64,000 nucleotides of DNA from a virus (taxonomy: Duplodnaviria > Caudoviricetes), in the IMG/VR virus record IMGVR_UViG_2556921664_000001, positions 8,766 through 72,765 of that record. One strand, 5' to 3'. The notes below the pieces were generated by a model. The model was not told the DNA's origin, did not search any database, and saw only the letters and a program-made list of their open reading frames with translations. Within the stretch, counting starts at the first letter, position 1. Every line of letters starts with the position of its first letter. Below, one piece after another: positions 24,691 to 26,340 of the stretch. The position numbers and the translations under genes are program-made.

Positions 24691-24720
24691 GGCCCCATCA
24701 GAGAACTCTCCGACGGGGCC
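24691..24720 (-). terminator. Terminator of the late/lysis transcript
   Basis: GGCCCC...GGGGCC stem followed on the minus strand by a run of seven T. Confidence 0.75.
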
Positions 24721-24725
24721 ACAAA

Positions 24726-25145
24726 TCATTTTCCTATACAAACGCAAAGCAGCAGTCCGGCTATGATCCAGGCTGCTGTTTTCACTTGCTTGGCTCTATT
24801 CAGTTTTGCTTGCTCCTCTTTCTCGAACTGTTTTAAGGATGCTCTGGCAGTCTCTAATGAGTTCTCCTGCTCTATCATTTCCTTCCTTAAGCTGTAGATT
24901 TGATTTTGTAGCTTCTCGGACTCCTGCTCTGCCCGACTCAATTTCTCCTCGGACTCCTGCAGCTGTATCTGCTGCTGACTCAACATCTCTGATTGTCTGT
25001 CGTTCAAGTCGGATAGCTCCATCAAGTTGTTCTCTAAATGTGTCAACTCCGACTCCGTTATCTGGTACGTTGCTTCTGAGGCAAAGGACAACTGCGGCAC
25101 CGATAATAAAACCAATAACAACAACCACCAATATCTTTTTAACAT
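24726..25145 (-). CDS. Spanin-like coiled-coil protein with signal peptide and C-terminal hydrophobic anchor (139 aa)
   Basis: MLKRYWWLLLLVLLSVPQLSFA signal, long heptad region, AAWIIAGLLLCVCIGK tail; lies downstream of the endolysin. Confidence 0.65.
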   Translation of the reverse strand: MLKRYWWLLLLVLLSVPQLSFASEATYQITESELTHLENNLMELSDLNDRQSEMLSQQQIQLQESEEKLSRAEQESEKLQNQIYSLRKEMIEQENSLETARASLKQFEKEEQAKLNRAKQVKTAAWIIAGLLLCVCIGK

Positions 25146-25149
25146 TCAT
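24796..25149 (-). CDS. i-spanin-like protein with N-terminal TM and coiled coil (117 aa), overlapping the 139-aa gene in another frame
   Basis: MNVKKILVVVVIGFIIGAAVVLCL TM segment; its ATG is 4 nt before the other ATG, and both share one GGAGG. Confidence 0.6.
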   Translation of the reverse strand: MNVKKILVVVVIGFIIGAAVVLCLRSNVPDNGVGVDTFREQLDGAIRLERQTIRDVESAADTAAGVRGEIESGRAGVREATKSNLQLKEGNDRAGELIRDCQSILKTVRERGASKTE

Positions 25150-25159
25150 AAGCCCTCCA

Positions 25160-25696
25160 TCACATATAGTCCGTTACACCGCGGGCAATGGCCCTCGCAA
25201 ACTCATCCTGGTTAAACCGTAAAAGCTTCTCATCATCCTCATTGGAAATAAATGCCAACTCCACAAGGACTGCTGGCATATCCGTATTGGTAAGGACATA
25301 GAGTCCGTTCTTACCCGGGGTTGCCATCTTAACTCCCCTGTCCACGGTTCCAAGGTGATCTACAATCTGGGACTGGATGCATTCAGCCAGATGCTTTCCA
25401 TCACTGGAACCAGCACAGTACCATGTTTCAGTTCCCTCCGCATATGGGGACTCCACACTGTTACAGTGAATGGAAATAAAAAGATCTGCATCAAGGTTAT
25501 TAGCCTCACTGCAGACCTCATATAATTCATCACTCTGTAACACAGCAGTTTCAATCCCCACGGCATTAAGGTAATGCTCTACCAGCTTACCAACGCTTAG
25601 TACCACATCACATTCCCTAAGACCTGTGACATCACTTACCGCCCCCGGATCTGGTACTCCATTTGGCGCATGGCCTGGATTAATAAATACCTTCAT
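25160..25696 (-). CDS. Endolysin, N-acetylmuramoyl-L-alanine amidase (Amidase_3 type)
   Basis: INPGH, E, ISIHCN and LVELAFISN zinc-amidase motifs; no cell-wall-binding domain. Confidence 0.92.
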   Translation of the reverse strand: MKVFINPGHAPNGVPDPGAVSDVTGLRECDVVLSVGKLVEHYLNAVGIETAVLQSDELYEVCSEANNLDADLFISIHCNSVESPYAEGTETWYCAGSSDGKHLAECIQSQIVDHLGTVDRGVKMATPGKNGLYVLTNTDMPAVLVELAFISNEDDEKLLRFNQDEFARAIARGVTDYM

Positions 25697-25697
25697 A

Positions 25698-25871
25698 TTA
25701 CTTCTCTCCTCTCTTTTCAACATGGTGCTTTCCAGCACCGCCAATATAACCTAAAAGACCGCTGGCAATACTCATGCTAAGCTCATTAAGATTTGAGTAA
25801 ATGGCTATGATGAGAGCTGCGGATAAGGCTACAACTACAACCAAGTCTGTAACATTAATTCTTTCTATCAC
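25698..25871 (-). CDS. Holin-like two-TM protein
   Basis: Two hydrophobic segments and a basic C-terminus; GTG start at 25871 with GGAGGT RBS; directly upstream of the endolysin. Confidence 0.65.
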   Translation of the reverse strand: MIERINVTDLVVVVALSAALIIAIYSNLNELSMSIASGLLGYIGGAGKHHVEKRGEK

Positions 25872-26340
25872 TATGACCACCTCCGACATCAAAAGGGGAA
25901 ACAATAGGCACGTCCTGGTCAATCGGAAGGTTCATCATTTCATCAAAGAAATACTCCCCATCACCATTGCCACCGAATTCGTCATGATAGCATTTGTACA
26001 TATCCCGGATATTATTTCTTGCGGTGATGGTAATACTCCCACGCTCAATAAAGGCACGACAGGACTGAATAATCCTATCCCTGAGAAGGACAAGGCCACC
26101 CTTACAGATACGGTCAACCCCTATCTGGAGAGCCCTTATCTCCTTTTTCATCTCAGCATTCTGATTGTTGATTTCTTCCTGCCAGGCTATAAACTTCTTC
26201 TGATTTTCCATCATTTCCATAAATAGCTGTTCTTTCTTTGCCACTGCCTCATCATGCTTATTTGCCATGCTCTGGGCTCGGCCAGAAAAGAAACTAAGCA
26301 CTGCCGTGGCCAGCATAATGAGAATCTGCTCTGATGTCAT
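25855..26340 (-). CDS. Lysis-region membrane-anchored phage protein (161 aa)
   Basis: N-terminal TM, coiled coil, and an LLRDRI...Y..YH..GGNG motif typical of siphophage pre-holin genes. Confidence 0.65.
   Translation of the reverse strand: MTSEQILIMLATAVLSFFSGRAQSMANKHDEAVAKKEQLFMEMMENQKKFIAWQEEINNQNAEMKKEIRALQIGVDRICKGGLVLLRDRIIQSCRAFIERGSITITARNNIRDMYKCYHDEFGGNGDGEYFFDEMMNLPIDQDVPIVSPFDVGGGHSDRKN

Follow-up and report, generated by a model that had tools for sequence, protein, structure and literature searches.

A dual-coding gene pair closing a prophage lysis cassette in Negativicutes as a candidate lipoprotein-free spanin analogue

We describe two genes, here termed A and B, that are encoded by the same stretch of DNA in two reading frames and that together close the lysis cassette of a prophage of Anaerovibrio. 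Comparing the window, i.e. the whole stretch of 64,000 nucleotides analysed here, with related loci, we conclude on sequence grounds that A and B are a genuine dual-coding gene pair. We regard a lipoprotein-free analogue of the two-component spanins, disrupting the outer membrane of diderm Firmicutes, as the most likely role of this pair, a reading which we hold with moderate confidence. The outer-membrane role is inferred from position, host range and architecture and is not demonstrated; there is no experiment on translation of both frames, on localisation or on function, and contact with the outer membrane is without direct evidence.

Negativicutes possess an envelope with an LPS-containing outer membrane, and any phage of a two-membraned bacterium has to break through this outer layer. 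To our knowledge, all described spanins rely on an outer-membrane lipoprotein.

Results

Host and lysis cassette

Homologue records name Anaerovibrio (Selenomonadaceae, Negativicutes) as the host, a diderm Firmicute as the initial annotation had inferred. The host genome (2.68 Mb, 100% complete) contains two matches to Omp85 as well as LpxC and signal peptidase II, and a search of this complete genome gave no match to LolA. Neither LolA nor LolB is present in any Negativicutes genome as reported by Antunes et al. 2016 (PMC5007114).

The lysis genes of the window are arranged in the order 161-aa transmembrane protein, holin-like gene, Amidase_3 endolysin, A/B pair and terminator (Table 1). The 161-aa gene, whose product may be another lysis factor, ends 17 nt inside the holin-like gene, past its GTG start. 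The 57-aa gene, for which no family match was obtained in Pfam or PHROG, is a holin candidate standing in the holin slot, as inferred from its architecture. The amidase gene ends with a TGA stop codon (25162-25160), and the Shine-Dalgarno sequence of the pair begins two bases further on. Of 25 related loci, 16 have a gene for a peptidoglycan hydrolase directly upstream of the pair, these enzymes being distributed over five Pfam families, i.e. Amidase_3 (nine loci), GH25, Peptidase_M15_3 and Amidase_2 (two loci each) and Peptidase_M15_2 (one locus). As these five endolysin families are unrelated, the pair travels with the lysis function and not with one particular enzyme.

Organisation of the A/B locus

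Read directly on the minus strand, the sequence runs GGAGG (25158-25154), GCTT, ATG (25149), A and ATG (25145), giving a spacing from the Shine-Dalgarno sequence of 4 nt for A and of 8 nt for B. This reading bears out the initial annotation, which had noted two start codons 4 nt apart behind a single GGAGG and two frames staying open together for 350 nt, the latter being the extent shared by the ORFs of A (117 aa) and B (139 aa). The shared stretch lies at 25145-24796 within a total of 424 bases (24726-25149, minus strand), and B extends 70 nt past the end of A. About 84% of the codons of B lie in A, and A is free of overlap only for its first two codons. The third sense frame contains 17 stops across the shared span of the window.

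Table 1. Features of the lysis cassette and of the A/B pair, in positions of the window
Feature	Position	Strand	Evidence and remarks
161-aa protein with N-terminal TM, first gene of the block	25855..26340	-	PHROG 4105/4257, unknown function; hydropathy
Holin-like gene, 57 aa, GTG start after GGAGGTGG	25698..25871	-	Two hydrophobic segments, basic tail
Amidase_3 endolysin, likely start ATG 25696	25160..25696	-	Pfam 8.7e-41; PHROG endolysin 1e-59
Shared Shine-Dalgarno sequence GGAGG	25154..25158	-	Direct reading; 2 nt past the amidase stop
Gene A, 117 aa + stop	25149..24796	-	ORF; candidate inner-membrane, i-spanin-like subunit
Putative transmembrane helix of A, residues 6-24, after basic MNVKK	25078..25134	-	Hydropathy 3.3 over 17 residues; AF2 helix
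C-terminal motif of A, residues 97-112, L-I-x-x-C-Q-x-I-L-x-x-V-R-x-R-G	24814..24861	-	Alignments
Gene B, 139 aa + stop	25145..24726	-	ORF, +1 frame of A; candidate exported subunit
Putative signal peptide of B, residues 1-22, VPQLSFA then SE	25080..25145	-	Pattern in 31/31 relatives
Motif near the mature N-terminus of B, residues 27-41, Y-x-I-T-E-x-E-L-x-x-L-E-x-N-L	25023..25067	-	Alignments
C-terminal hydrophobic tail of B, residues 123-138	24732..24779	-	After a basic cluster; within the A-free part 24726-24795
Intrinsic terminator, 13-bp stem + T-run	24691..24720	-	5 nt past the B stop

In about half of the relatives the start of A precedes that of B by 4 nt (ATGNATG or ATGATTG), in several others B leads by 2 nt (ATGTG or TTGTG), and in further loci A starts 10 nt ahead. 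Whatever the start geometry, one Shine-Dalgarno sequence serves both starts in all relatives.

Evidence for dual coding

The openness of both frames was assessed against a shuffle null in which one protein was kept and synonymous codons were redrawn with the codon usage of the prophage itself. For the window, fixing the B protein results in about 10 stops expected in frame A, none of 2000 trials being stop-free, and fixing the A protein likewise results in about 10 stops expected in frame B. Over the full range, 7.7-10.5 stops are expected in frame A if B is fixed (P(none) ≤0.0005) and 5.4-9.9 stops in frame B if A is fixed (P(none) ≤0.002). Even under a conservative null, in which only those codons were redrawn that differ between the window and diverged clades, 5-7 stops are still expected (P(none) = 0.0002-0.0016).

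The same openness is found among relatives. DNA was fetched for 27 related loci, and both frames are of full length in 20 of the 24 usable close loci, one of the remainder running off the contig end and three containing frame switches; the third sense frame of these loci carries 13-17 stops. Across Negativicutes, both frames are open in 33 of 33 loci, one of them being the window's own, at identities of A down to about 30%. The +1 frame holds a B-like ORF of 134-169 codons in all 33 class-wide loci, with L045 representing a variant, and the +2 frame is interrupted by 6-17 stops.

The substitution pattern points in the same direction. Differences between the window and L014 are distributed over the three codon positions of B as 35/30/47 (117 codons), compared with 33/31/91 (185 codons) for the adjacent amidase in the same comparison, and in closer pairs changes at the third position are two to three times rarer in B than in the amidase. 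For a deep selection test, the pairwise identity over 21 diverse loci was compared with the null imposed by the other frame. The identity in frame A is 0.270, against 0.155 expected from the conservation of B alone (z ~30), and in frame B 0.342, against 0.182 expected from the conservation of A (z ~35). Since both frames lie above their nulls, each protein is under purifying selection of its own. Judged from these sequence comparisons, A/B is a genuine dual-coding pair and not a product of chance, meeting the membership test for an overprinted pair. Conservation of both frames in homologues had been named in the initial annotation as the check on dual coding, and shuffle nulls, identity nulls and substitution pattern agree in supporting it; interruption of one frame in close homologues, named there as one of the outcomes that would refute the reading, did not occur at any depth, the only switches being those in L002, L012 and L020.

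These three loci, all metagenome or MAG assemblies, and the proteins P0154, P0155 and P0157 show a mid-gene switch of frame yielding chimeric predicted proteins. The switches in the three loci are probably assembly indels, real frameshift variants not being excluded. A programmed frameshift fusion of A and B was considered and ruled out, as each frame has its own start at the Shine-Dalgarno sequence and chimeras occur only in metagenome or MAG assemblies.

On the opposite strand, an ORF of 138 codons (24806-25222, +) overlaps the pair. It was rejected as a gene: among relatives, its open run can be as short as 79 or as long as 140 codons and up to 3 stops occur, and this variability marks it as a compositional by-product of the double coding. 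In a comparison with four RNA-library runs, short contigs from two studies, 90-97% alike, cover the stretch in part; such contigs can demonstrate neither transcription nor strand nor translation.

Predicted structure of A and B

The AF2 model of A comprises a transmembrane helix (residues 3-25) and one further helix (residues 33-116) with a pLDDT of 79, exceeding 90 in the last third, and a Pro/Gly/Asn turn lies between the two. The sequence D-N-G-x-G-A-x-x-V-R-x-x-L forms this turn and the start of the long helix, and it is encoded by the same bases as the motif near the mature N-terminus of B. The C-terminal 18 residues form an amphipathic helix (hydrophobic moment 0.4-0.75). Within the C-terminal motif, C101 is kept in most members and replaced by Ser or Gly in several; the periplasmic part of B is without Cys. 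A V-L-C sequence at the end of the transmembrane helix of A was rejected as a lipobox, as it is neither conserved nor in agreement with the [LVI][ASTVI][GAS]C consensus.

The signal sequence of B is composed of a basic n-region, a 12-residue hydrophobic core, a helix breaker, a small residue at -3 and Ala at -1. Ala at -1 and a small residue at -3 were read in 31 of 31 relatives, in which the residues vary and the pattern stays; by this pattern the signal is predicted to be of the signal-peptidase-I type and looks cleavable. A Cys present at -3 in some B signals was dismissed as a lipobox, as it stands behind bulky residues, departs from the [LVI][ASTVI][GAS]C consensus and is not conserved. 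The motif Y-x-I-[TS]-E-x-E-L, nearly invariant, follows 0-8 residues past the signal, this distance being longer in L054. AF2 models B as a single, heptad-rich helix (residues 6-138, pLDDT 88). Across the family, the C-terminal tail has 11-16 residues, is rich in Gly/Ala, is preceded by a basic flank (K-x-Q-R-N, net charge +2 to +5) and ends with K/R.

No canonical lipobox is present in A or B, and a pattern scan covering 20 to 64 kb of the window gave no ORF with a credible lipobox. The architecture proposed in the initial annotation thus fits the data: its N-terminal transmembrane segment plus coiled coil of A is recovered as a transmembrane segment plus long helix by hydropathy and AF2, its cleavable-looking signal, coiled coil and hydrophobic tail of B by the family pattern and AF2, and its missing lipobox by the signal patterns of the relatives and by the scan.

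Database searches contribute little to the assignment of function. Pfam and PHROG searches with A and B of the window gave nothing beyond weak matches of coiled-coil type, regarded as noise (DUF7201, EssA; for B, phrog_214 at 0.007), A having no PHROG match. Five of 39 relatives of A match the 'Rz-like spanin' phrog_214 (best 1e-5), and a few match PHROGs 739, 8821 or 1026. The Rz-like matches extend only over the transmembrane segment and about 60 further residues, i.e. the N-terminal ~70, at E-values of 1e-4 to 1e-5, and could be an effect of composition; the sole full-length PHROG match in the A family is to phrog_18860, which is of unknown function. Members of the B family gave no consistent PHROG match, two B relatives weakly matching a holin PHROG. 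Foldseek searches with the AF2 models of A and B against viral structures returned nothing usable, single long helices being uninformative, and the ESM Atlas returned only clusters that are unnamed or mis-named ('peptidase M23/M24').

Relatives and distribution

Homologue searches found 212 proteins related to B, which have 139-142 aa and identities as low as 57%, and 37 related to A (117-120 aa); both are named in the databases 'hypothetical' or, wrongly, 'peptidase M24'. A profile of the A family compared with 1.84 billion proteins resulted in 305 cluster representatives, 43 of them at E ≤1e-10; the matches all have 100-150 aa, an N-terminal transmembrane segment, the D-N-G turn motif and the C-terminal sequence L-I-x-E-C-Q-x-I-L-x-x-V-R-x-R-G. 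Of the 301 genomes (93 genera) searched within the class of the host, 95 genomes, belonging to 42 genera, contain the A family, often in several copies. By tblastn with B and two A relatives, no match was found in 50,697 genomes of isolated phages.

The named sources on long contigs, Anaerovibrio, Pectinatus, Phascolarctobacterium (three times) and a Veillonellaceae MAG, are all diderm. The family also occurs on three short MAG contigs labelled Lachnospiraceae, Acholeplasmataceae and Coprobacillus; one of these shares a 90% cluster with an 864 kb Phascolarctobacterium contig, which makes mis-binning likely but does not prove it.

Several relatives deviate in their surroundings or extent. In the MRKSF clade (L019, L023, L027) the upstream gene encodes an unidentified Cys/Trp-rich protein of 191 aa and no amidase, and frame A is open for about 100 nt further upstream, into the preceding gene. 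A pair-bearing phage (L062:924-5005, and L061) has the signature of a diversity-generating retroelement (faint RVT_1 and Mtd_N matches), with a 3D-domain gene (PF06725) after the pair instead of an endolysin before it. In L004:4001-4276 and L006:4001-4297, the 5' third of the pair is missing and the remainder is joined to an unrelated ORF upstream of it (e.g. P0151, 132 aa); these truncated copies look like prophage remnants.

A hybrid lineage and a second family without lipobox

One lineage, consisting of L045 (1323-1838, minus strand) and nine protein clusters (P0401-P0409) at 81-99% identity, keeps the signal and the coiled coil of B and has the basic flank and tail swapped for a module of about 50 residues. 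Some of its members carry different signal peptides, and in this lineage the C-terminus of A is altered too and the start geometry is TTGTG. Pfam has no match to the variant tail of L045. The module of this lineage shares 33-35% identity with the C-terminal end of a second family (L064:1105-1677, L067:1159-1674, also L065, L066 and L068-L079), whose members have 171-240 aa, an N-terminal transmembrane segment and a conserved C-terminal region of about 50 residues ending R-Y-[ST]-[FW]. By analogy, this aromatic C-terminus resembles an outer-membrane beta-signal.

Among the 301 genomes of Negativicutes, 32 genomes from 19 of the 93 genera carry the second family, which belongs to no Pfam or PHROG family and is also without a lipobox. 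It is not dual coded, consisting of a single gene with 8-27 stops in the other frames. Its upstream neighbours are Amidase_3, glucosaminidase, a VgrG3-like lysozyme or small transmembrane genes at prophage ends, and it may be a unimolecular spanin analogue. It shares with A/B the slot after the endolysin, the host class and the missing lipobox, and differs in being a single gene that is not coiled coil throughout. Since the module is the end distant from the inner-membrane anchor in the second family, by analogy the C-terminus of B would be its outward end. The hybrid lineage and the second family suggest the C-terminus of B being the outer-membrane end; this is an inference, and it is weakened by the hybrid lineage being shallow (at least 81% identity) and by its C-terminus not being aromatic.

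Comparison with known lysis proteins

Two-component spanins with overlapped or embedded genes are known, such as Rz/Rz1 of lambda and LysB/LysC of P2 (Kongari et al. 2018, PMC6139136), and in about 70% of the embedded cases the o-spanin begins at 0.4-0.5 of the length of its i-spanin (PMC6139136). Like Rz/Rz1 and LysB/LysC, A/B stands last in the lysis cassette of a phage whose host has two membranes; both points are supported by the gene order of the window, by Omp85 and LpxC of the host and by the hydrolases upstream in the 16 of 25 loci. As in 'overlapped' spanins, the second protein is encoded in the +1 frame and runs beyond the first, the unusual feature being an overlap that starts right at the start codon. 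A resembles i-spanins in having an N-terminal transmembrane segment and a helical periplasmic domain, which is fulfilled by prediction only. Of the periplasmic cysteines that would serve intermolecular disulfides in such spanins, the A family has one that is kept in most but not all members and B has none. Resemblance in sequence to Rz-like families is limited to the weak, partial matches of some A relatives. The pair meets four spanin criteria (PMC6139136), i.e. the place in the cassette, the diderm host, the i-spanin-like first protein and the overlapped +1 genes, and to judge from these points it would work in the manner of a two-component spanin.

B differs from o-spanins in several respects. 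It is not a lipoprotein, lacking the lipobox with Cys at +1 and carrying instead an SPase-I type signal, a coiled coil of about 95 residues and, at its C-terminus, a hydrophobic tail; rather than being short and rich in proline, it is structured and exceeds its partner in length; and unlike embedded o-spanins it starts only 2-10 nt from the start of A, on a common Shine-Dalgarno sequence. With the lipoprotein criterion failed, we do not file A/B as a member of the o-spanins or u-spanins. B alone resembles the u-spanin gp11 of T1 (PMC6139136) in its export signal, its periplasmic domain without Cys and its C-terminal hydrophobic segment. It does not meet the criterion for this type, having no lipobox, and it also differs by an alpha-helical and not beta domain, by a tail of only 11-16 residues and by always being paired with A. 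The disruptin gp28 of phiKT (bioRxiv 10.1101/515445) is a single small cationic peptide and, unlike A/B, has no membrane anchors, coiled coil or dual coding. Holins are small proteins with one or more transmembrane segments and a charged C-terminus, which form lesions in the inner membrane and are usually encoded before the endolysin. A and B sit after the endolysin and carry long predicted periplasmic helices, a separate candidate with two transmembrane segments precedes the endolysin, and two B relatives weakly match a holin PHROG.

Discussion

Our data suggest a model in which A and B would be produced from the same mRNA by one Shine-Dalgarno sequence serving two start codons a few bases apart. 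A would reside in the inner membrane with its N-terminal helix, its helix of about 84 residues projecting into the periplasm, as inferred from the prediction. B would be exported by Sec, its signal would be cut by signal peptidase I, and its helix of about 95 residues would pair with A, all of these steps including the binding being inferred. The C-terminus of B, consisting of a basic cluster and a short hydrophobic tail and reaching about 22 residues beyond A, would engage the outer membrane and thereby replace the lipid anchor of Rz1. Upon removal of the peptidoglycan by the amidase, the complexes would cluster and collapse, resulting in the outer membrane being broken or fused.

Two topologies of B have to be weighed. 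The tail could be a stop-transfer anchor in the inner membrane, both proteins standing there with their tips reaching outward. Alternatively, B would be the outer subunit with its C-terminus at the outer membrane, A and B being parallel and the ~22 extra residues serving as the anchor. We moderately favour the outer-subunit topology over B being anchored in the inner membrane, because the tail is short and Gly/Ala-rich with its basic flank on the periplasmic side, and because flank and tail are naturally swapped for the ~50-residue module in the L045 lineage. Going beyond this, A and B might form a parallel, in-register coiled coil in which contacting residues are encoded by the same nucleotides, their ratio being set by start-codon competition on the one Shine-Dalgarno sequence and B being held in the outer membrane through a short hydrophobic helix at its C-terminus, for which one lineage would use a beta-signal-like module instead. 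We offer this detailed version only as a speculation and consider it improbable as it stands. If true, it would represent outer-membrane anchoring without a lipid or the Lol system, evolved by phages of a class lacking Lol.

Among the alternatives, the one surviving best, which we consider unlikely, assumes that both proteins are made and act at the inner membrane, as a holin regulator or antiholin, as a helper of endolysin release or as a timing device. The inner-membrane-type targeting signals of both A and B and the absence of a lipobox are in line with it, and additional membrane factors in lysis cassettes are known, the helper function having its model in Lcc6 of LambdaSo (bioRxiv 10.1101/2024.01.23.576932). 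However, a separate holin-like gene already occupies the usual place before the endolysin, and the pair, following the endolysin as the last gene, takes the slot of a spanin. The predicted periplasmic helices of about 12-14 nm are suited to spanning the periplasm, all named hosts on long contigs are diderm, and the hybrid with its beta-signal-like module points outward.

A non-lytic membrane role of the prophage genes, e.g. in superinfection exclusion or envelope modification, with the adjacency to the endolysin being incidental, appears very improbable to us. It could be supported by the position of the pair at the prophage edge, adjoining cargo genes on the opposite strand, and by the lack of any annotated function in Pfam, PHROG or the ESM Atlas; it is opposed by the pair sharing the strand of the endolysin, by the Shine-Dalgarno sequence lying 2 nt past the amidase stop, by the operon terminator following the pair and by the link to endolysins of five families, which holds across the class. 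That only one frame is translated and the other is open as a by-product of composition, e.g. of coiled-coil codon bias, can practically be dismissed: although gene callers pick just one gene per record (212 B vs 37 A) and the antisense frame is also open in part, the shuffle nulls reject this in both directions, at identities as low as about 30% both frames are still open and each has its own conserved motifs, and the antisense openness is not kept among relatives (79-140 codons, up to 3 stops).

A full-text literature search on spanins together with Negativicutes or diderm Firmicutes found no description of the A/B module, and nothing was found in the literature on how phages of Negativicutes exit through the outer membrane. 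As gene callers annotate only one of the two genes per record, half of the module is missing from the databases. The overlap is extreme in that two helical proteins, conserved across the class down to about 30% identity, are served by one ribosome-binding site, making the pair suitable for studying, in a natural setting, how sequences evolve under double constraint and how start codons are chosen. As a lipoprotein-free spanin analogue, the A/B module would fill a gap by accounting for the outer-membrane exit of phages infecting the Lol-less Negativicutes, and it would help to study how proteins get to this membrane, or attack it, in diderm Firmicutes.
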